Source: a virus
Lineage: Duplodnaviria > Caudoviricetes
Virus record (IMG/VR): IMGVR_UViG_3300020047_006434
Coordinates: 21,414 to 85,413 of that record
DNA length: 64,000 nt
Reading direction: 5' to 3' (one strand)
The position numbers and the translations under genes were made by a program. Below are positions 20 to 61,996 of this stretch, in pieces. Every line of letters starts with the position of its first letter. The first letter of the stretch is position 1. A model generated the notes under the pieces. That model did no database searches. It saw only the letters and a list, made by a program, of their open reading frames with translations, and was not told the DNA's origin.

Positions 20-508
20 ATGAATGAGTTTCTGACGGCGTGCGTGCCGCTCGTGCGCATGACCGCCATCCGCATTCTTGGCGCCGGCAATGATATGGTT
101 GACGATGCCATACAGGAGTCGTTGATCAAAGTGTGGCGCAACTTGCATCGGTTCAGCGCTGGCAACATAGAGGCGTGGATAGTCACCGTCACCAGTAACG
201 CCTGCCATGATGCGCGGCTGTCGGCAACCCACAGGCACTGGCACGGTAGTATCGGACTCCATACACTGCAAGGTGTGGCAGCCATCGACGACACGGCGGC
301 GATAGTATGCCGAGACGAAAGCCGGCGCAGGGTGCGTGATGCCATCAGCAGGCTATACCCGACCTACCAGCCGGTTGCATGGTTGATGTACGTTGAAGGC
401 TGCAAGGCGGGGGAAGCGGCGCAGGTGCTGGGCGTGCCGGATGCCACAGTGTACGCACAGGCGAAGCATGTAAAGACGATGTTGGGTAAAATATTGAGCG
501 AGAATTAG
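20..508 (+). CDS. Phage-encoded ECF-type RNA polymerase sigma-70 factor
   Basis: Region 2 signature DDAIQESLIKVWRNLHRF...AWIVTVTSNACHD and region 4 HTH AISRL...LMYVEGCKAGEAAQVLGVPDATV; 162 aa, no regions 1/3. Confidence 0.85.
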   Translation: MNEFLTACVPLVRMTAIRILGAGNDMVDDAIQESLIKVWRNLHRFSAGNIEAWIVTVTSNACHDARLSATHRHWHGSIGLHTLQGVAAIDDTAAIVCRDESRRRVRDAISRLYPTYQPVAWLMYVEGCKAGEAAQVLGVPDATVYAQAKHVKTMLGKILSEN

Positions 509-45398: not shown

Positions 45399-45779
45399 TC
45401 ACGCCCGTAGTAGATAGCCGAGTAATCGCCATCGGTGATTCTGTTTTGCTACAACCTGCGTAGATGGCAGGCTGTTATACTTGCTCGTAATCATGGCGGC
45501 GGTGTTGGTTAACGGCCAACCATTGCTTTTTCCAAAGTTAATCCATTGATATTCAACAATGTAGCGCTGTTCAGTTGAAACGATGGACAATATCACGAGC
45601 CTTGGTAGTAACCCACGGCTTTTTAGTTCAGCTATCCACATTGCTTTTTTCGTGAATGCGATTTCACTTACATGTGAACCAAATCGCTCGTGCGCATCTA
45701 TGGCACTTCCTACGTAATGGATTAATTCATCTCGTGGATCAATTAGCCCATAGATTTGTACCATGTCCCGATCTATCAT
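45399..45779 (-). CDS. GIY-YIG family nuclease
   Basis: IYGLIDPRDELIHYVGSA...ERFGSH...KAMWIAEL...EYQWI. Confidence 0.75.
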   Translation of the reverse strand: MIDRDMVQIYGLIDPRDELIHYVGSAIDAHERFGSHVSEIAFTKKAMWIAELKSRGLLPRLVILSIVSTEQRYIVEYQWINFGKSNGWPLTNTAAMITSKYNSLPSTQVVAKQNHRWRLLGYLLRA

Positions 45780-45787
45780 TCCATCTC

Positions 45788-46063
45788 CTACAGTTCATTA
45801 AACAATGCATCAAGCAGTTCTTCGGTGTTATCAACTTCCACCTGTTGCATACTTGCTGCCCCCTTGCGCCATGCAAGCTTTGCTAACTGTACGCGCTCAT
45901 CAGTTGGCACATTTTCAAACAAGGCTATTAGGTCATCATCCTCGCCACGAATCAGCCACATGTTTAGGCGCAACTGAAAAACGCTGTTCCGGTCTCGCTT
46001 AGGGCGACCCTTGCGTACTTTCTTGGGTCGCCCTGGCTTTTTCTTACCCGCGTCGCTTAGCAT
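45788..46063 (-). CDS. parR: ParR/StbB-like centromere-binding adaptor (RHH-like)
   Basis: Overlaps parM stop; basic N-terminus, beta-helix-helix core, acidic C-tail EVDNTEELLDALFNEL. Confidence 0.6.
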   Translation of the reverse strand: MLSDAGKKKPGRPKKVRKGRPKRDRNSVFQLRLNMWLIRGEDDDLIALFENVPTDERVQLAKLAWRKGAASMQQVEVDNTEELLDALFNEL

Positions 46064-47033
46064 CGGCCACACCCCGCTTGTACAGACCGCGTGCGATGGA
46101 TTGAATTGGGTCTGATGGCACAACGGCTTTACCATCAAAATAGGCATCGATCTTAGACGAAAGCAGGGCAGGAGTAGCGCCACCGCCAACCACAATCACT
46201 TTGCCGAAACGCTTCCATGTGGCTGCCCATGCCGTCGAAATATAAGCGGTAACCATTTCAGACCATGCATTGATACCGCTCTTCATCTCACCATTAAGCC
46301 GGTTATCACGCAATAAAGTATCAAGCTCGGTCAATGTGTACATCTTACCCTTGTTGAGCAATTCAAGTAGGCGACGAACGCCAAGCATATCACTGCCACC
46401 CATTCGATCAACCTGCTTGCCGCCATTCAATACCATCAATTCGATAGTGTTGTAACCGATTGATACAATACCAACTTCACTTTTGAGAATGCCAGCGTTT
46501 CCATTTGGAGCGCCGTCAATATTCAGGATGTAATCAAATAAAGCACCAGCAGCCTGAGGCTTAAGCACAATGGACTCAACATTAACCTTAAACGATTCGC
46601 CATTGTACTTCCACCAATGATCGCCCAGTAACCAGCCTTCCATACTGGACTGAACAGAACTGGCGTCGGATTCTTTCAGCATGGAGAATGGTAGCCCAAC
46701 ATAAAGCGTCAACGGATTACGAAGCTTTGAATAGGTACCCATGTGCTTACTGAACGCACTGTATAGTAGTGCTCGGATCTCCAGGCTGCCAACTAGCCTC
46801 TCTAGCCCCAGATTGCCAACACTGACGCCCTCGTAACCTGCATAGTGCCCGGTATAAAAACGATTGTCGCTAAACTCGATAACGGCGGCACGAACACTTT
46901 GCCCGTCACCCATCGCATCGGCAAAGCGCTCGCCAGTAGCAACAGACACATGGCTAGCGTATGTAGTGGCACCATTCTTGTCATACAGCTTGATATTACC
47001 AAACCCCAGATCGACACCCATTAAATGACTCAC
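46044..47033 (-). CDS. parM: ParM/StbA-family actin-like ATPase (plasmid segregation); GTG start refined
   Basis: Phosphate-1 GVDLGFGNIK, PQAAGA, phosphate-2 VSIGYNTIE, adenosine VVGGGA, DPIQSIARGLY; AAGGA RBS. Confidence 0.88.
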   Translation of the reverse strand: MSHLMGVDLGFGNIKLYDKNGATTYASHVSVATGERFADAMGDGQSVRAAVIEFSDNRFYTGHYAGYEGVSVGNLGLERLVGSLEIRALLYSAFSKHMGTYSKLRNPLTLYVGLPFSMLKESDASSVQSSMEGWLLGDHWWKYNGESFKVNVESIVLKPQAAGALFDYILNIDGAPNGNAGILKSEVGIVSIGYNTIELMVLNGGKQVDRMGGSDMLGVRRLLELLNKGKMYTLTELDTLLRDNRLNGEMKSGINAWSEMVTAYISTAWAATWKRFGKVIVVGGGATPALLSSKIDAYFDGKAVVPSDPIQSIARGLYKRGVADAKRRG

Positions 47034-47078
47034 TGAAACATCCTTTCTATAGAAAACTATATCCAACTTACTCATCTC

Positions 47079-47129
47079 AGTATATCATAGGTTTTTGTAA
47101 CACACAAAAACAAACTATCATTTTGTGAC
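47079..47129 (-). promoter_or_regulatory. parMR promoter with repeated GT(T/C)ACAAAA sites
   Basis: TTGTGT-17-TATACT; repeats at 47093-47101 and 47121-47129. Confidence 0.55.
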
Positions 47130-47406
47130 ATACTATAATTATCATGTGTGCCATAGGTGGTAGAATATCGCTCATCCTATCGCCTCCCTATATCGTCTCA
47201 ATCAACGTAATCGCCACGGCCAGCGCAACAGCCAGCCGTACATCCCCTTGCATCGCCACGTACAGCCACAGCCCGAACAGCGCAATCAGCAGCAGCCTAT
47301 TGCCGCCACTTCGCCAGAAGCCAGTCGAACGCCTGTAGTGCTTTCGTCGCGCCATAGCCTATCGCCAGCCCTATCGCCAAAACGGTAACAATTGAGAGTA
47401 GTTCAT

Positions 47407-47730
47407 TCATGCCGTCACCCCAATTCTACACGTATCACTCATTCCATAGATCCATACGCGCTGCCCATCTACATCAACACCAGCGTCATCGGCGCAGAAT
47501 GCGTCACGCAGCCGGCTCGACAGCGTTCGGCAGCGTTGCGGGTAGGCTACGGGGTTGACGGCAAATTTTGCTTCCATTTCGATAGTGCTGGCATCCTCGT
47601 GCAGGATGCCGCCGACAATCTTGCACGGTAGGCCAACAGCGCTACATAGCGATTCGGTATAATCGGCCGCCATATTCAGCGCCGATTGTTTGCCGCCCGA
47701 CACATCATCGTTGTATTTTTGCAATTTCAT
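47407..47730 (-). CDS. Hypothetical protein
   Basis: Coupled ORF; start refined to MKLQKY. Confidence 0.55.
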   Translation of the reverse strand: MKLQKYNDDVSGGKQSALNMAADYTESLCSAVGLPCKIVGGILHEDASTIEMEAKFAVNPVAYPQRCRTLSSRLRDAFCADDAGVDVDGQRVWIYGMSDTCRIGVTA

Positions 47731-48044
47731 GCCGTCACCCCCACGGCAACGCCCACCGTGTACCGGCCCAGCGTCCACACAAAGCCCGACCGACGACCGA
47801 CGTGCATCGGTGATTGTCGGCGCGCATCGGACAACAACCGGTGGTAGAACGTGGTCAGCACTACCCATATGATAGCCACTAGCCATAGGCCATCGAATAG
47901 ACAATGGAGATACGGCACGGCGGCGATGATGAGATACAGCAGGATAGCTGTGACGGCGCCCGTGCCTAGCCAGGTGTCGGTGATGCCCACTGCTCTGGCC
48001 GCTAACAGTGCAATGATGCCAATGACGATAGTTGCGATGATCAT
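47727..48044 (-). CDS. Multi-TM membrane protein
   Basis: Three hydrophobic helices; GGGGAG RBS. Confidence 0.6.
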   Translation of the reverse strand: MIIATIVIGIIALLAARAVGITDTWLGTGAVTAILLYLIIAAVPYLHCLFDGLWLVAIIWVVLTTFYHRLLSDARRQSPMHVGRRSGFVWTLGRYTVGVAVGVTA

Positions 48045-48069
48045 GATACCCACTCCCCTACTCAAACAT

Positions 48070-48157
48070 TAAACCGAAGACTAAACCGCATACTACACGA
48101 AGCATAAACAAACAGTACGTAAACACTAAACCGAACAGTAAACCAAAGTAAACCGAA
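48070..48157. repeat. Seven short direct repeats TAAAC(CGAA) in an A/C-rich intergenic segment
   Basis: TAAAC at 48070, 48082, 48105, 48120, 48127, 48139, 48149. Confidence 0.8.
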
Positions 48158-48169
48158 CCAGTGTATTTT

Positions 48170-48700
48170 CTATTTTCTCAGGCGCAACATGCGTGCGTGA
48201 GCAGCGCTGCGATAGTCGTTCACAATCGTGCGCCACTCGCTCAGGCGTGGCCCATCTCGCCTGAGCCACTCAAGCGCATCAGCGCCGGTTGGATAATCGT
48301 GCGTGTTGATGTGCCACTGCCGCGCTTCGCTGTTGTAGTCGAACAAGCACGGCAAGCGGCGCCGCTGCCCTACCCTATCGAGCATAAGCCGGCGAAGGCA
48401 TTGCCCCTCCCAACGACGCAACCCCCAACGTGCGGCGCCACTTTCACCCCAAGGCAGCGGCCGCATGAGGATGCGGCCTGTCATGCTGTCCACATTCGCC
48501 AAGCCGCCATCAGCCTCGGTCGTGTATAACTTTGCGATCAAGTGCGCAATGGCAGTGATAGCAATGTCTAGTTGCGCCTGACTGTGGCCGGCCAAATTTA
48601 ATTCGTCGGCTGTGGCTGCGATGCGTTGCTTGATGGCTGCCGGCGCCGCAATGGTGGCCACAGCCTGCGCGCGTTCGAGTAGTTGCGTGAAATCGTTCAT
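48170..48700 (-). CDS. Hypothetical protein (176 aa)
   Basis: GGAGA RBS; ATGA coupling. Confidence 0.65.
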   Translation of the reverse strand: MNDFTQLLERAQAVATIAAPAAIKQRIAATADELNLAGHSQAQLDIAITAIAHLIAKLYTTEADGGLANVDSMTGRILMRPLPWGESGAARWGLRRWEGQCLRRLMLDRVGQRRRLPCLFDYNSEARQWHINTHDYPTGADALEWLRRDGPRLSEWRTIVNDYRSAAHARMLRLRK

Positions 48701-49592: not shown

Positions 49593-50312
49593 CTATTTCT
49601 TCGGTTTGCGCTTGTTACTTGCCTGTTCTTCTCGTGTTGCCCATCGGCAGTTTGCTGCCCACCCATGAGATTTGCAGTCATCGCAATGCCCACAGTGATA
49701 GCCATCATCGTTGTTGATTCTATCGATACTATGACCTTGAGGGCGTGAACCCATGTCGGTAATGAAATTTTCGACTGTTTCAACCCATCGTTTGCAAACA
49801 GTAATCCCTCTGCCGCCATAATCTGCATATTGGATCGTCTTCGGATTAGTACAACGATGGATCATGTTTGCCCAGGATCGATACTCTGGCGTACAACTTC
49901 TCCCATGAACATGTGGTCGGCCGATCACCTTCTTGCATCCACAGCTTCTGATGTATCCACGCCGCAAGTAGTGAACAGTAGCAAAAATAGTACCACCACA
50001 ATCGCACATGCAAAGCCATTGCATCATTCCTTTTTCTGGATTGAGTGTCAATTCATTTGCCACCAAATATCCAAACCTCTGCCCAGTAACATCGGCCCGT
50101 CTGGCGCTAATTTGCACATCTTTGTTTGCACAACCGCACCCGTGCGACTTTCCGTTAAATAATGTTCTTCCTCTCACAGTTCTAATATTTCCGCAATCGC
50201 ACTTGCATACCCAGTATGCGCCGTCCCTGCTTTCAGCAGGCTCAATCACTACGTATCGGCCAAATCTTTGTCCTGCTATATCAATTGACGGACGCCCTAT
50301 TTTCTTAGTCAT
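49593..50312 (-). CDS. Putative homing endonuclease, paralogue of 31795-32544
   Basis: Two GQRFG...W.C.CDCG domains; TPEYRSWANMIHRC...YGGRGITVC..W...SIDRINND...NCRWAT. Confidence 0.85.
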   Translation of the reverse strand: MTKKIGRPSIDIAGQRFGRYVVIEPAESRDGAYWVCKCDCGNIRTVRGRTLFNGKSHGCGCANKDVQISARRADVTGQRFGYLVANELTLNPEKGMMQWLCMCDCGGTIFATVHYLRRGYIRSCGCKKVIGRPHVHGRSCTPEYRSWANMIHRCTNPKTIQYADYGGRGITVCKRWVETVENFITDMGSRPQGHSIDRINNDDGYHCGHCDDCKSHGWAANCRWATREEQASNKRKPKK

Positions 50313-50316
50313 ATGC

Positions 50317-50586
50317 TCACCACATCGCCCGCAGGCTGTCCACTTGCTCACTATCTGACATTGCGTCAAACGTCTTCACAGCCTTCGTCATGCGCTTCGT
50401 GGGCAACTTTGCGGCCTTGGCTGGCTTCGGTGTTTCGACGGGCTGTTCCTGTCGTGCCATGCGCTCAACCAACAGACGGTCACGCTTTAGCATCAGTTCT
50501 TCAATGTACGCACGCAGTTCGGTGCTACTCATCCGGTCAATGTCTTTGCGCGAATCGCCGCGCTGAGGTAAACTACGCTTTGCCAT
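50317..50586 (-). CDS. Hypothetical coiled-coil/basic protein
   Basis: ELRAYIEELMLKRDRL heptads. Confidence 0.6.
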   Translation of the reverse strand: MAKRSLPQRGDSRKDIDRMSSTELRAYIEELMLKRDRLLVERMARQEQPVETPKPAKAAKLPTKRMTKAVKTFDAMSDSEQVDSLRAMW

Positions 50587-53795: not shown

Positions 53796-53996
53796 TCACC
53801 CCGCCATCCACATCACCCAGGCCAGCACGACAATGGCCAGCAGCAGCGCCGCCAGTAACCAATGCACCGTGCGGCGCAATGCGGCATTGTCGGCACGTTC
53901 AGCGGACAGCGCACGCAGCGCACAGTCACGGTTAGCGATGGCGGCGCGGTAGGTTTCGTCAGACACAAACACCCAGGTGTGGTTGTCGCTGTTCAT
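53796..53996 (-). CDS. Small coiled-coil plus C-terminal TM protein
   Basis: WLLAALLLAIVVLAWVMW. Confidence 0.55.
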   Translation of the reverse strand: MNSDNHTWVFVSDETYRAAIANRDCALRALSAERADNAALRRTVHWLLAALLLAIVVLAWVMWMAG

Positions 53997-54952
53997 GGTG
54001 CCACCTCCGCAAACAATGGCATGGATTCGTAGTCGGTCGCCTTGCCCACACGCACCACAGGCGCACGTCCGCTTGCGTTGATGGCTTCACGGATACGGGC
54101 ATGGGCCAACTCGATATAATCGGCGCTTAGGTCGATACCGATGTAGTCACGCCCTAACATGGCAGCCGTTGCACCGGTCGTGCCAGAACCATTGAACGGA
54201 TCAAGAATCGTGGCCGGCACGATGTCGGCGTTACATGTGCAGGTTGGGCGAAAGCCGATTGCCTGCTTAATGTAGCGTTCACCCGCTTGCACACGTCCGT
54301 TACCATTGACGCCGGTTTTGCCCTTGTCAAAGTAGCTGCCCTTGGCGCTTGTGTCCGGTTGGTCGGTGCGTTCAATAATGCGTTCCCACGGTGCCCCACA
54401 ATTGCCGCAAACGCCATGCTCGCTGCTTCCCGCCTTGATGCACGTCTCGGCCAACTCCGGCGGCATGGTGGCGAAGTGGGCACCGTGGTAAGGCTTGGTT
54501 GTGATGCTCCACACAGAGCGGCGGTTACGAAAACCAGATCCGGCAGTGCGAGAGTCTACACCAGCATTTTGGCGTTTTTGTATTGATGGTGCGTGCCATG
54601 AAACATTATTTCCATCAACAAAAGAACGACCCCTAAGTAATCCTAGGTCTGTGCCTTCTGTAGCTTTTTCTTTCACCGCTTCAGCGTCGTAATAATACCG
54701 CTGGCTTTTGGTCAGCAGAAAGATATACTCATGGGCCTTGGTCGGTCGGTCGATTACGCTTTCCGGCATAGGGTTGGGCTTTGCCCACACATTATCCATG
54801 CGAACAATCCATCCGTCAGATTGCAAAGCCAGTGCCACGCGATGCGGAGTAAGCATGTCATTCTTCGGCTTTATTACCGCCGGCGGCTCAAAGTATTTGA
54901 GTAGGTGCGATGGTATCTGCTCTTTTCGCATGGATATTGTTGGACGATTCAC
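53993..54952 (-). CDS. N4-C/N6-A DNA methyltransferase, C-terminal fragment
   Basis: ALQSDGW...VWAKPNPMPESVIDRPTKAHEYIFLLTK; HFATMPPELAETCI; ILDPFNGSGTTG (motif I); own AAGGAG RBS. Confidence 0.88.
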   Translation of the reverse strand: MNRPTISMRKEQIPSHLLKYFEPPAVIKPKNDMLTPHRVALALQSDGWIVRMDNVWAKPNPMPESVIDRPTKAHEYIFLLTKSQRYYYDAEAVKEKATEGTDLGLLRGRSFVDGNNVSWHAPSIQKRQNAGVDSRTAGSGFRNRRSVWSITTKPYHGAHFATMPPELAETCIKAGSSEHGVCGNCGAPWERIIERTDQPDTSAKGSYFDKGKTGVNGNGRVQAGERYIKQAIGFRPTCTCNADIVPATILDPFNGSGTTGATAAMLGRDYIGIDLSADYIELAHARIREAINASGRAPVVRVGKATDYESMPLFAEVAP

Positions 54953-55688
54953 AGATAAACTCCTTATTTACATTCTTCAAGCTATGCACCCACTTGTGGC
55001 ACTTTTCACAGAGCAATATCAGATTAGATGGTTCAGCCCTCAGTGATTCATCGGACACGAAAGATACGATGTGATGAATGTGAAAAGGTTTTCGATAAGA
55101 CTCTTTCCTGACTCCGCATCGTTGGCAATGGCCATTATCTCGTTTCCACACAAGAAGTGCGGCGGCTTTCCATTCCTTTGATGAGTACAACCGTTGCCGA
55201 TCTGGTGTGCCACCTTGCCACTCTGCATGATTCTCGCCTTGATTGTAGATGTACCAACAGACCGGAGAACAAAAGTGCTTGTCACCAACATTTTTCTTGA
55301 TTTCGGATTTGTGCTTTTCAAAATGCTTGCCACAAGTCCAACAGTTGACAGTTAGCCTAGTGCGCTTCCGTGCTGGTCTTCTAGATCCGGCGCAATGCTT
55401 GCTGCAATATATGCCAGCGCCACGATTGATATGAACAACGTGAACTGTGAACACCTTTTCGCAAACAGGACAAGGCTTAGTTACATAGTTTTCTGGCTTT
55501 GACACATGCGCAATACTGCACGCTCTGCAAATAGAACTTTGCCGATGCTTTTCCTTGCCACACAATGGGCAGGTTTTAGACTTTTCGCCTTTTTCAGCTT
55601 GTTGCTTCTGGAAGCAATCCATGCATTGCTTACCCTGCCCAGAATATAATTTATTACACTTAGGGCATTGTATCGGCTTTCGTGCCAT
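54888..55688 (-). mobile_element. HNH endonuclease with zinc-finger repeats inserted in the methyltransferase gene
   Basis: CQRCG...HIHHIVSF...NLILLCEKCH; overlaps both MTase fragments; paralogue of 15332-16219. Confidence 0.85.
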
Positions 55689-56061
55689 GTTTAGCCAACT
55701 CCTGTAAAACGAAAATATATTCTTCCTGTGTTAAGTCTCTGCGTAGAACATAGCTGCTCGACTCTATATTTTCGCTGGCAAAACTTGAACCCAAATTCAG
55801 CCAGCACACCCCATCGTCACGCAACACCCGCCACACTTCAGCGAACACACTACGCAAGGCGCAGACGTAACAGACGCTGCACGGTGGTTCCTTGCGTGCC
55901 CATGCAAGGCAATCCGGCTCAGACTCAAGGCCAATCTGCCCGTCAACACCATAGTCACGTAGTCCAGCATAAGGCGGACTAGTCACCACGCAATGCACAC
56001 TCTTTGCCGGCAGCGTGCGCAGTACCTGTCGGTTGTCACCCTGCAATAGTTGGTAAGTCAT
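55660..56061 (-). CDS. N4-C/N6-A DNA methyltransferase, N-terminal fragment
   Basis: LLQGDNRQVL...VHCVVTSPPY (motif IV) ...VWRVLRDDGVCWLNLG. Confidence 0.88.
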   Translation of the reverse strand: MTYQLLQGDNRQVLRTLPAKSVHCVVTSPPYAGLRDYGVDGQIGLESEPDCLAWARKEPPCSVCYVCALRSVFAEVWRVLRDDGVCWLNLGSSFASENIESSSYVLRRDLTQEEYIFVLQELAKHGTKADTMP

Positions 56062-57644: not shown

Positions 57645-57935
57645 CTATGCTGCATGATCCGGGTCTCCGTTTGGCAACGAAAGCAGTTGGTCAAGTGACA
57701 CGGCCAATGCCTCACTCAATACTGCCGCATCCTCTGGCGTCAACGGTTGCGCGCCACTCTCTAGCTTACACATCTTACTATTGTGAAAATTCACTTTCTG
57801 CGCAAGTTCATTCTGTCCAATGTCGCGCTCAGCGCGCAGCAAACGGATACGAGCGCCCACAATGCGCCTGTTGCGTGGCGAGGACAGCAACCGCTGAACC
57901 TCCACAACCTTCTGAAACGCCGAATCAATTGTCAT
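57645..57935 (-). CDS. XRE (Cro/CI-type) HTH transcriptional regulator
   Basis: VGARIRLLRAERDIGQNELAQKV...KLESG...LSEALAVSLDQLL; GGAGG RBS. Confidence 0.88.
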   Translation of the reverse strand: MTIDSAFQKVVEVQRLLSSPRNRRIVGARIRLLRAERDIGQNELAQKVNFHNSKMCKLESGAQPLTPEDAAVLSEALAVSLDQLLSLPNGDPDHAA

Positions 57936-58266
57936 CAAAAAGACCTCCATGTCATTGCTGAATCTGGAACAAATTTCATTAATAGCAATGATAGCAGGTT
58001 TTTTACCAGTTGTCAACAATGAATTTTCTGTTTTAGAAATTTATGTCTAGGAAAGGGATACCATGCGAATCGATGCTAGTGCTTGACGACATTCCCCGCG
58101 CCAATGCCTGGTTTCGGCGCCACTTTCGGGTGTGGATGCAAAGTAACGAAGTGGTCAATGTCGATGCGCTGTAGGTTTGCACTTGGCGAGAACACATTGA
58201 CGATAGTGTTCTGAGTAGATAGAGAATTATCAGCGAATGATCAGTAGAAAATCAGCAAAAGTCAGC

Positions 58267-58362: not shown

Positions 58363-59205
58363 CTATGCCGCCTTGCGTAGCACCTGAATACCGTTCTCTT
58401 GTTCTCTTTCCGTATCACGCTTGCGATTAGGTGTGTACTTTGAAAGAATCACCCGATCCGAATCACTCTCTTTGTAATTGTATAACTTGTTAAACAAATC
58501 GATATATGAATCAACATCAACACACTTAACAAGGCGGGTGCTAAGAAACTTCATTTTTCGCATCATACGAGCATGATCATATTGTCCGCCGGAAAACAAA
58601 TTGTACAGCGCACTGATAAAAACACGCTCGTATGCACCGTCAAAGTAAATGGCAAAATCCTTTGCAGCTTCCACCACCTTGGTTGCAAACACGATATTAT
58701 TAGCCTTATATGTGCCATCCTTAAAGTACTTATGCAGATCGACCTTATCACCATAATGACAGATCTGATAAGCGGTAGCAGTAGTCAGGAATGGGTATTT
58801 CTTTTGAAACTCGCGAAGGCGTAAGTACTCAGCATTACCTTCAGTGCAGTACCGGTGCAAGTAGTCCTCTACCCTCCAATTTCTCTGGTAACTATTTAGC
58901 AGAGCCACATCGTCACGATTTGCAGACTTTGTGATCTGGTAATAAATCCGCAATCCAAGCTGCTTTGCAGCGTACCATCGGTGCTGCCCATCAATAATAA
59001 CCCGATTCGTGTCAACCTTAATCGGGTTATCTTCAAGCATATTTTTTCTCGCAATGGAATCGGCAATTTCAGCGGCATGATCCATGTCAATGGGGCGATT
59101 CGATGGATCTAATCTGAACTGATCGTAGTTTGTTGTTGAGTAGATGGCGTTTACAACCAAATCCTCTTGACGTTGCAAAGGGCCATGATACAATGAGTTA
59201 GACAT
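58363..59205 (-). CDS. ParB/Srx N-terminal-like domain protein
   Basis: SNRPID...IADSI...NPIKV...IIDGQHRWYAAKQLG. Confidence 0.75.
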   Translation of the reverse strand: MSNSLYHGPLQRQEDLVVNAIYSTTNYDQFRLDPSNRPIDMDHAAEIADSIARKNMLEDNPIKVDTNRVIIDGQHRWYAAKQLGLRIYYQITKSANRDDVALLNSYQRNWRVEDYLHRYCTEGNAEYLRLREFQKKYPFLTTATAYQICHYGDKVDLHKYFKDGTYKANNIVFATKVVEAAKDFAIYFDGAYERVFISALYNLFSGGQYDHARMMRKMKFLSTRLVKCVDVDSYIDLFNKLYNYKESDSDRVILSKYTPNRKRDTEREQENGIQVLRKAA

Positions 59206-60279: not shown

Positions 60280-60429
60280 TTACTTTCGCTCTTTCATTAA
60301 ACGCTCTGCTTCAGCCTTCGCCAATCGTTCCATGACCTCTTGCATTGTTTCCCCGGTCAAAGCGGCGATCAGCCGCAAGGCTTTGCGAGCACCCTCAGTA
60401 AGTTTCATCGTAACTTTTTCTTTATCCAT
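60280..60429 (-). CDS. 49-aa RHH-like regulator (not in ORF track)
   Basis: MDKEKVTMKLTEGARKALRLIAALTGETMQEVMERLA...; promoter upstream. Confidence 0.7.
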   Translation of the reverse strand: MDKEKVTMKLTEGARKALRLIAALTGETMQEVMERLAKAEAERLMKERK

Positions 60430-60476
60430 TACCTGCCTGCTATTCACCTCCATTGATAATGTATCTACTAGTAGTC

Positions 60477-60505
60477 ATAGTAGCACAATATCAAGTAGTA
60501 GTCAA
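60477..60505 (-). promoter_or_regulatory. sigma70 promoter with AGTAGTCA repeats
   Basis: TTGACT-17-TACTAT. Confidence 0.6.
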
Positions 60506-60656
60506 GCGATTCGCTCATGATCCAACCTTAAATTTTTGCACTTTTGCATAGCCATATATCATGCAACTTTCATAACGCAATCAGCGCTGCCCGCAAGAGT
60601 TACCCAAGAACAGTGAAAATTACCCACATTTCAGCTAAATTGTACTACATAGTTAT

Positions 60657-60670
60657 CGAACTTTTGTTCT
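60657..60670. promoter_or_regulatory. LexA (Cheo-type SOS) box
   Basis: CGAAC-TTTT-GTTCT. Confidence 0.55.
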
Positions 60671-60898
60671 AATTACACGAGTATGAGTAAAAAAAAGTTA
60701 TTGAGTTACCGTTATCCCCATCCTAAATCATTTATAATATAATTATATGTCTAAAATATACATATAATTATATAATGTTTATATATATATAGCATATAAG
60801 TGTATTTTTTTATTATTTTATAAACTAAACCAAGAATGAATAACTAAAATAACATGGATAACTCTCTCAGAGTAAAATACCCTAAAAATGCCAGTTAT

Positions 60899-60912
60899 CG
60901 AACGTTTGTTCG
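60899..60912. promoter_or_regulatory. LexA (Cheo-type SOS) box
   Basis: CGAAC-GTTT-GTTCG, full consensus. Confidence 0.65.
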
Positions 60913-61181
60913 GATAACTGAGTTTTTGAAACTTCACTATTAATTGCAGAAAAGTTAAGAATATTTTCATAAATTATTGAATTACTTCGTATAACAATCT
61001 TCGTTTTTGCAATTTTTGTTGCAGTCATTTTCGCATCCCCGCCAGTTATCCAAGTTATCCTTATTCCATACCTTCGCCAGCTTACTGCATTGTCAATTGC
61101 TAAAATAGGAATTAAGTGCTACAATTCTAGTCACTTAGCCGCTTACCACGCAAATTCATTGCTAATTTAGAAATTTAGTGC

Positions 61182-61210
61182 TTGACAAGGGATTGACATT
61201 GTGTTAATAT
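61182..61210 (+). promoter_or_regulatory. sigma70 promoter for recombination operon
   Basis: TTGACA-17-TAATAT. Confidence 0.65.
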
Positions 61211-61294
61211 TTCTATTGTAGCAACTGACCAACACGCAAAGTCGCCATCGCTACATAGATTCCATCTTATTTGAGCACAAGAAAGGCTTAAACC

Positions 61295-61996
61295 ATGTCC
61301 ACGTATTTAGACCCGATGAGCACCGCAGTTGAAGAAGCAGAGCGCCCGAATTTTATCTACGGGCAGTTGGAAGTGAGCGCCGCGTTTATTCAGTTCGTCA
61401 ACAAAAAAAAGACGGTCTGGACGGAACACGATGACGCCAAAGAGCGCCGCACTGAGGTCACTATGGTGATCAACCCCATTGAAGAAACTGGCCTTACACA
61501 ATTGTTCACCCGCTCCACGATCTGCGGTAATCGCGGCGAGTGGGCCGATATTATTTGGCCCAGCTTGCGGGATGTGTGCGGCATTAAGGAGTTGCGCGCC
61601 GCTGACAAGAAGTTTGTCAAAGTCGAGGTCGTCAAGACTGGCCGCAAGTACACCAACAAAAACGGCGAAGAAGTGGAAAACACAACCTTCAAATTCCACG
61701 GGCTGTTTACCGACAAGGCTGGATGTGTTAGTGCATTTTCCGCCGACGGCGGCACCCCCAAGAGCACGCTGAACGTTGCGCCGGCCAATAACCCTGGCGA
61801 TCCGATGGCCATTGACATGACGCCCAACGCCAACAATCTGGAACGGGAAAGCTCCAAGCTTTTCCTGCCGATGCTGGTGAAAGCTGCCGGCGGTGACGTC
61901 AATCAATTGAAGACCATGATCGCATCCATGACGCCATTGAACAAGTATTTTACCGTTGATTCGCCCGAAGTCGTTGAACTCCTCAAGGCGGCATAA
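61295..61996 (+). CDS. Hypothetical protein, possibly ssDNA-binding
   Basis: GAAAGG RBS; beta-rich N-half; first gene of recombination operon. Confidence 0.55.
   Translation: MSTYLDPMSTAVEEAERPNFIYGQLEVSAAFIQFVNKKKTVWTEHDDAKERRTEVTMVINPIEETGLTQLFTRSTICGNRGEWADIIWPSLRDVCGIKELRAADKKFVKVEVVKTGRKYTNKNGEEVENTTFKFHGLFTDKAGCVSAFSADGGTPKSTLNVAPANNPGDPMAIDMTPNANNLERESSKLFLPMLVKAAGGDVNQLKTMIASMTPLNKYFTVDSPEVVELLKAA

Follow-up and report, generated by a model that had tools for sequence, protein, structure and literature searches.

The complete 85,413-bp genome of an uncultured tailed phage, probably of Anaerolineae, very likely carries a genuine ParMRC-like (type II, actin-type) partition cassette, in which iterons precede a gene for a ParM-like ATPase and a gene for a ribbon-helix-helix (RHH) adaptor. 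A 64-kb stretch of this genome, bases 21414-85413 of a single IMG/VR virus record, was analyzed in detail and is called the window below; unless otherwise stated, coordinates are window positions. A ParM/ParR-type cassette had been proposed from the DNA letters of the window (the original prediction), and family membership, fold, synteny and iterons all spoke in its favor. The same prediction held that the prophage is kept as an episome, a question on which the evidence was divided.

The ATPase gene occupies positions 46044-47021 on the minus strand and encodes 325 residues when read from M19, whereas the longest open reading frame reaches 47075. In the alignment, the homologues begin at query residue 19 and the JGI gene call is also 325 residues long; for these reasons the start was set at the ATG at 47021, which is probably the true one. 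When the frame 46044-47075(-) was compared with Pfam, it matched ALP_N (PF17989) with an E value of 6.9e-11 (43 bits, for a cut-off of 26.3), and it aligned end to end with phrog_691, annotated as 'partition protein' (E 3e-32). An alignment of 32 sequences showed that residues D22, G24, G26 and K29 of phosphate-1, residues G202, S205, G207, T210 and E212 of phosphate-2, and residues V296 and G297-G299 of the adenosine motif are invariant. Thus, the actin-fold ATPase with three nucleotide-binding motifs that had been read from the sequence was recovered by the ALP_N match, the invariant residues and a ParM-like fold. It belongs to the ParM/ALP group of ATPases, and its phosphate-1, phosphate-2 and adenosine motifs are intact, as a ParMRC system requires.

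In order to establish to which actin family the protein belongs, its AF2 model (pLDDT 90) was compared with solved structures by Foldseek. The top matches were pSK41 ParM, pCBH ParM, Ta0583, CorM and Dh-cParM1, a chromosomal ParM of Desulfitobacterium, and both MreB and DnaK ranked below the ParM-type structures. Furthermore, a profile of the ATPase family searched against the PDB retrieved pCBH ParM (3.6e-15), CorM (3.9e-10), Alp12 (9.5e-10) and pSK41 ParM (1e-6), and the best PDB match of the single sequence was CorM (E 2e-7). Both the fold and the profile searches therefore group the protein with the segregation-type ParMs and not with MreB. More than 350 homologues were found, and the few that bear a name are 'ParM/StbA family protein' entries of Anaerolineae metagenome-assembled genomes (MAGs).

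The adaptor gene (45788-46063, minus strand, 91 residues) was recognized by homology, synteny, its AF2 model and VIA-align. The frame opens with an ATG at 46063, so that its first 20 nt are shared with the end of the ATPase gene, stop codon included. The protein consists of a basic N-terminus, a predicted strand-helix-helix RHH core (residues 28-73) and an acidic amphipathic C-terminal helix (77-90), and the AF2 model (pLDDT 86) shows an extended segment followed by helices 43-51, 54-73 and 77-90. By BLASTP, the adaptor was 35% identical (E 6e-7) to the gene lying 3' of a 39%-identical ATPase, and a profile search gathered 317 representatives, all of about 70-90 residues. A gene of 70-107 residues occupies the same place in nearly every related locus, and the adaptor HMM matched the gene directly 3' of the ATPase in 75 of the 117 loci with room for one. 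The family consensus runs from a basic N-terminus through a hydrophobic strand, 'GEDDDLIAF' and a second helix ending in 'ALRxG' to an acidic linker and a C-terminal 'DAL..LLF'.

Fifty members of this family gave nothing at E 0.1 or better against Pfam, the adaptor profile gave nothing below E 0.28 against the PDB, and Foldseek returned no match for the adaptor model. The only search that recovered RHH/ParR folds was an exhaustive structural comparison of the model with 48,161 chains by VIA-align. Rank 1 was chain B of 2q2k, the ParR of pSK41 (Z 5.2, rmsd 1.4 Å over 44/44 residues), and rank 3 was the ParR of pB171 (2jd3, Z 4.4); ranks 2 and 4-6 were RHH antitoxins, with more RHH antitoxins, NikR and PutA farther down. 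The entry 2Q2K is the complex of pSK41 ParR with DNA (PMC3074162). The Z values are modest, as is expected for the 45-residue half of a dimeric fold, and the list of matches is coherent. The overlapping, downstream, small RHH-like gene with an acidic tail of the original prediction is thus upheld by the 20-nt overlap, the conserved position and the two ParR structures among the first three ranks. As modeled, this small neighbor of the ATPase combines an N-terminal RHH domain with a C-terminal peptide, conserved as an acidic/hydrophobic terminus, that is predicted to bind ParM.

In addition, residues 9-24 of the adaptor (45990-46040, minus strand) contain two AT-hook-like GRP motifs, PGRPKK and KGRPKR. 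Most family members lack this N-terminal extension, which is also present in the 63%-identical adaptor P0123 and the close clade and might provide further contacts with the minor groove in the AT-rich leader of the ATPase gene.

As the ParMRC scheme also calls for an iterated centromere near the operon promoter, the region upstream of the ATPase was searched for repeats, and two candidate sets were found. The distal set, a candidate parC-like centromere, lies on the minus strand in a 105-nt gap (48066-48170). It contains five same-strand copies of GGTTTA (TAAACC on the plus strand) between 48070 and 48154, four of them as CGGTTTA, grouped 3 + 2 around a 39-nt core. TAAACC occurs 14 times on the two strands of the 64-kb window, five of these sites falling within 85 bp, and the array is the only cluster in the window in which any 6-mer reaches at least five copies within 130 bp. 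For CGGTTTA, four of the six sites in the whole genome are in 48066-48170. The array precedes a series of small genes leading up to the ATPase, 1 kb downstream, and a promoter scan found no sigma-70-like promoter inside it.

The proximal candidate, a putative operator or centromere, is the AT-rich leader (47022-47175, minus strand) that precedes the probable ATPase start. Three same-strand copies of TRTGKYACA are found at 47096-47155, together with an 8-bp inverted repeat (47091-47111) and a promoter-like site (47201-47174). The leader holds three of the seven genome-wide matches to TRTGKYACA, a motif that was defined post hoc from the region. These repeats are weaker than the distal set and were given less weight because the motif was derived from the leader itself. 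The two stretches in which repeats over the promoter had been announced (47079-47129 and 48070-48157) do both contain repeats.

Four small co-oriented ORFs, read from the sequence together with their Shine-Dalgarno sites, fill the interval 47188-48065 (minus strand). Three are hydrophobic (about 105, 37 and 55 residues) and one is soluble (about 107 residues), and none has a Pfam or PHROG match. The 16-nt sequence GGGGTGACGGCATGAA occurs twice among them, at 47405-47420 and 47726-47741 (minus strand), and each copy spans the end of one ORF and the beginning of the following one, stop and start codons included; the pair looks like a duplicated translational-coupling junction. Farther out, the cassette region is flanked on both sides by free-standing homing-endonuclease genes: 9 nt beyond the adaptor stop begins a GIY-YIG gene (45399-45779, minus strand), and 2.5 kb upstream lies an HNH gene (49593-50369, minus strand; phrog_374, E 1e-66).

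Clear arrays were observed in relatives of the cassette. Among 103 distinct related loci, 13 carry arrays of 4-10 iterons placed 48-150 nt upstream of the ATPase, whereas the fraction of the sequence taken up by that upstream zone predicts about 0.8. At one of them, L058, about 11 CTCACA units in two groups stand directly before the ribosome-binding site, which on sequence grounds is the classic parC-parM-parR layout. Other relatives have their arrays 0.7-1.5 kb upstream of the ATPase, like the present phage. At 24 of the 85 related loci with room, an FtsK/SpoIIIE-like ATPase gene lies at most 1.5 kb upstream of the ParM-like gene (for example L058, 8477-9946; also L046, L057, L066, L071, L087, L091 and L136), and in many cases the 3' end of the FtsK/SpoIIIE-like gene extends into the iterons, a link between a DNA translocase and an actin-type cassette in Anaerolineae elements.

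The genome around the cassette is that of a virion-encoding phage. The first 121 bases of the 85,413-bp record are identical to its last 121 bases, and CheckV scored the 85.4-kb genome as 100% complete, with direct terminal repeats; it was concluded that the record is a whole genome that assembles as a circle. A reading of the 121-bp overlap as physical terminal repeats was rejected, as its length is that of a plausible assembler k-mer; the overlap is therefore taken as a sign of a circular or permuted molecule only, and a circular assembly is expected equally of a circular episome and of a circularly permuted virion genome. Genes for the large terminase (TerL), portal, capsid polyprotein, tape measure and tail fibre were identified, and they were taken to represent the full virion, packaging and lysis set of a phage-plasmid. 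The claim of a complete, virion-encoding genome thus stood, on the structural genes, the joining of the ends and the CheckV estimate.

Outside the window, a 1154-residue primase-polymerase/D5-type helicase with NrS-1 HBD, D5_N and DUF5906 domains (phrog_1829, E 1e-153) provides the replicase that had been looked for. Its helicase half resembles 'phage/plasmid primase, P4 family' genes on Bacillus plasmid prophages of about 40 kb. The genome thus joins an autonomous replication initiator, this P4-family primase-helicase, to a partition system, as a phage-plasmid does; P4-type replicases occur in virulent phages too. Other genes encode a DnaJ-domain protein, an ERCC4-type nuclease, a RecT-like annealing protein, DNA methyltransferases, two HNH and one GIY-YIG endonucleases, an ECF-type sigma factor, an XRE-family HTH protein and a stand-alone ParB-like protein. 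The sigma factor gene (20-508, plus strand; Sigma70_r2 and r4_2) closes the rightward block, beside the structural genes. A tRNA scan of the 64-kb window found none.

Two further regions of the window deserve mention. At 53993-56061 (minus strand), a DNA methyltransferase is apparently split by an HNH endonuclease gene (54888-55688) into an N-terminal piece (55660-56061, phrog_67) and an N6_N4_Mtase piece (53993-54952), all on the minus strand; this may be a homing-endonuclease or intron-type insertion. The lowest GC of the window (about 43%) is found at 60400-61300, between divergent leftward and rightward gene blocks. This AT-rich region contains several repeats of the AGTTATCGAAC / GTTCGGATAAC type, repeated GTTATC/GATAAC sites and a very AT-rich palindromic stretch (60734-60837), and the cumulative GC skew reaches its minimum at about 60-62 kb. 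It may be a regulatory switch or a replication origin.

In order to establish whether the phage could integrate, all six frames of the whole 85,413-bp genome were searched for tyrosine (PF00589) and serine (PF00239) recombinases, DDE (rve) transposase (PF00665) and protelomerase (PF16684), and none was found. The absence of an integrase, first noted for the window, hence extends to the entire genome, and the integration module is missing as in a phage-plasmid. Neither ParA (AAA_31) nor FtsK has a homologue in the genome. A second partition system of the ParAB type was considered and rejected: ParA is absent, and the ParB-like protein (58363-59205, minus strand; phrog_12305, E 6e-35) stands alone. 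Its gene adjoins that of the XRE-family protein (57645-58019, minus strand), which has its HTH in the C-terminal half. Among the ORFs scanned, many of which have no match, these two proteins, together with the AT-rich region and its repeated GTTATC/GATAAC sites, are the sole candidates for lysogeny control, and no CI-type or cleavage-domain repressor, antirepressor, toxin-antitoxin pair or dimer resolvase was recognized.

The host is likely to be a member of the Anaerolineae (Chloroflexota), since the named homologues are from that group, as are 18 of 23 hits in species-representative genomes (MAGs of Anaerolineales, Anaerolineae, Chloroflexota or Thermoflexales). Portal relatives were present in 9 of 301 Anaerolineae genomes. 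The Chloroflexota host that had been put forward is thereby likely, and the filamentous habit that went with it is only probable.

Relatives of the ATPase were missed when viral contigs were scanned with the single protein and were found by an alignment-based scan. The family is carried by 42 IMG/VR records at 25-41% identity over most of the protein, with two short fragmentary matches higher, and the metagenome and genome scans gave only relatives at 41% identity or less. The phage database yielded a single match, Virus Rctr41k (36% identity), where an integrase-like gene lies at a distance of 2.5 kb, and PLSDB plasmids gave ATPase matches at 23-25% identity only. The closest ATPases, P0002-P0012, are 45-67% identical to the query. 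In a quick maximum-likelihood tree (IQ-TREE), the query ATPase groups with P0002-P0004 (SH-aLRT 96), outside a well-supported clade (97) that holds all integrase-linked and MAG copies.

The carriers of this sister clade are phages of about 40 kb. Of its records, 17 reach a completeness of at least 90%; every one of these has a PF00589 recombinase, and 6 are flagged as provirus. Copies of the ATPase were also found inside Anaerolineae contigs (1.49, 1.75 and 3.03 Mb), and one of these copies lies beside an integrase, a downstream gene of 82 residues and a DnaJ gene like that of the present phage. As read from these genomes, a partition-type cassette appears to be normal equipment of integrating temperate phages in this host group. 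Because sister-clade cassettes coexist with integrases and occur as integrated prophages, the cassette is not diagnostic of a plasmid state. The relatives of the portal gene (24 records, all fragments), none with the ATPase and 3 with an integrase, are uninformative for lifestyle.

The cassette most probably works like ParMRC. While the identity of its parts, the conservation of the unit and the lack of integration genes were shown here, we infer DNA binding, filament formation and the plasmid lifestyle along the following lines. Dimers of the adaptor would coat the repeat array, and their C-terminal helices would capture the ends of ATP-bound ATPase filaments. Insertional growth of the filaments would then push sister copies of the phage DNA apart, and in this way a slow-growing, filamentous Anaerolineae host could keep the unintegrated genome as a plasmid prophage of low copy number.

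Maintenance of the phage as a plasmid prophage is the most likely purpose, though at somewhat less than even odds. Phage-plasmids are expected to have a partition system and need no integrase (PMC7969092), and the present genome, which combines phage genes with a replicase and a partition system and lacks an integrase, fits this operational picture. The episome of the original prediction thus has on its side the missing integrase, the replicase and the closed genome, and against it the sister-clade cassettes in integrating phages, the lack of a recognized lysogeny module and the distance of 1 kb, filled by four genes, that separates the clean iterons from the ATPase; the position of the query ATPase in a clade separate from the integrase-linked one is a further point for a plasmid prophage. 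Somewhat more tentatively, one may picture an unintegrated, actin-segregated plasmid prophage of 85 kb whose unannotated adaptor family, and possibly the membrane proteins, spread the genome along the multicellular Anaerolineae filament. It is also possible, though less likely than not, that the cassette acts only during phage DNA replication, after infection or in a carrier state, positioning or spreading replicating genomes for replication and packaging in the manner of AlpAC, with no stable plasmid inheritance and in a phage that might be virulent. Such a role, nearly as likely as a plasmid prophage, has a precedent in the integrated prophage CGP3, whose AlpC and AlpA bind repeats in the promoter and are required if the phage DNA is to replicate efficiently (PMC4446434), and partition homologues occur in phages regarded as virulent too (PMC7969092). 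It would also suit both the sister clade, where integrating phages have no need of plasmid inheritance, and the lack of a lysogeny module among the scanned ORFs. Homing endonucleases and a sigma factor of their own are common in virulent phages, and the three homing endonucleases and the sigma factor of this genome fit a virulent phage equally well. Yet an integrase-less genome with a partition module and an autonomous replicase bears the standard signature of a phage-plasmid, and its ATPase is distinct from the integrase-linked clade; both observations weigh against a role limited to replication.

A function outside DNA segregation is unlikely. The filament might act on the envelope, or move DNA to septa for spread from cell to cell, with the help of the small membrane proteins, and the case for such repurposing draws on CorMR, a ParMR pair repurposed for cell shape whose CorM is among the closest solved relatives of the ATPase, on the four small, mostly hydrophobic ORFs between iterons and ATPase, and on the FtsK/SpoIIIE-like gene upstream in 24/85 related loci. 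However, the present genome lacks an FtsK homologue, its membrane ORFs have no homologues of known function, and the retained RHH core of the adaptor and the presence of iterons point to DNA as the cargo. Finally, the cassette could be a recent gain, a passenger with little or no function for the phage. The close flanking endonuclease genes (GIY-YIG 9 nt after the adaptor stop, HNH 2.5 kb upstream) and the absence of the ATPase from the 24 fragmentary portal records are in line with a passenger, but neither gene is damaged and all catalytic motifs are in place, the ATPase and adaptor are kept as a pair at 67% and 63% identity on another contig, and several data sets together contain at least 16 near-identical copies, which makes a passenger very improbable.

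To our knowledge, actin-type partition cassettes of phages have barely been studied, AlpAC being the one worked example, and for the phylum Chloroflexota we are aware of no report of either a phage-plasmid or a segregation system of the actin type. Our literature search found no work on Anaerolineae phages with ParM or on actin-type phage cassettes in Chloroflexota. The present analysis defines a large family, mainly of Anaerolineae, with more than 350 ATPases, 317 adaptor representatives that lack a Pfam entry, and iteron arrays before many of the copies. Most of its members are in integrating phages and the present one is in a complete, integrase-free genome, a useful natural contrast that raises the question whether the cassette is there for the inheritance of a plasmid, for the replication of phage DNA or for both purposes. 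It also cautions against naming phage-plasmids by the partition gene alone.

Among known systems, the cassette shares its order of repeats, ATPase and small adaptor with the ParMRC systems of pSK41, pCBH, R1 and, as Alp12, pE88. Its ATPase has the fold of the ParMs of Gram-positive plasmids (3js6 and 6izr were the top Foldseek matches, and pCBH ParM gave the profile E value of 3.6e-15), the RHH core of the adaptor is best matched by pSK41 and pB171 ParR, the adaptor likewise has a C-terminal helix, and relatives of the cassette have iterons in two groups before the ATPase. In contrast, the ATPase is only 12-19% identical to plasmid ParMs, no sequence relationship of the adaptor to Pfam or PDB entries could be detected, and the adaptors of the close clade have an AT-hook-like N-terminal extension. 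The replicon also differs from those of ParMRC in being a virion-encoding phage genome, and its clean iterons lie 1 kb upstream with four small ORFs between.

The phage-plasmids P1, N15 and SSU5 and the cluster A actinophages, in which parABS stands in place of the integrase (PMC7969092), resemble the present phage in their full set of phage genes, replicase and partition system and in having no integration module. Unlike these phage-plasmids, the present genome has no recognized repressor, addiction or dimer-resolution function, and its plasmid state is putative. The well-studied P1, N15 and cluster A actinophages also differ from it in using ParAB-type systems. AlpA/AlpC/alpS of Corynebacterium glutamicum CGP3 (PMC4446434), compared here by description, is likewise a phage-encoded pair of ParM-like ATPase and co-transcribed adaptor with short repeats in the promoter region, and it belongs to an integrated prophage, as does the sister clade of the present ATPase. 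However, the adaptor gene precedes the ATPase in CGP3, which is opposite to the order found here, and CGP3 integrates whereas the present phage has no integrase. The description of AlpAC(S) as the ATPase and adaptor of an integrated prophage thus fits the sister clade, and not the present phage. CorMR of Anabaena (bioRxiv 10.1101/2025.06.27.661541), whose CorM was the best single-sequence PDB match and among the top folds, is chromosomal and controls cell shape, whereas the present pair is carried by a phage and has kept its iterons.
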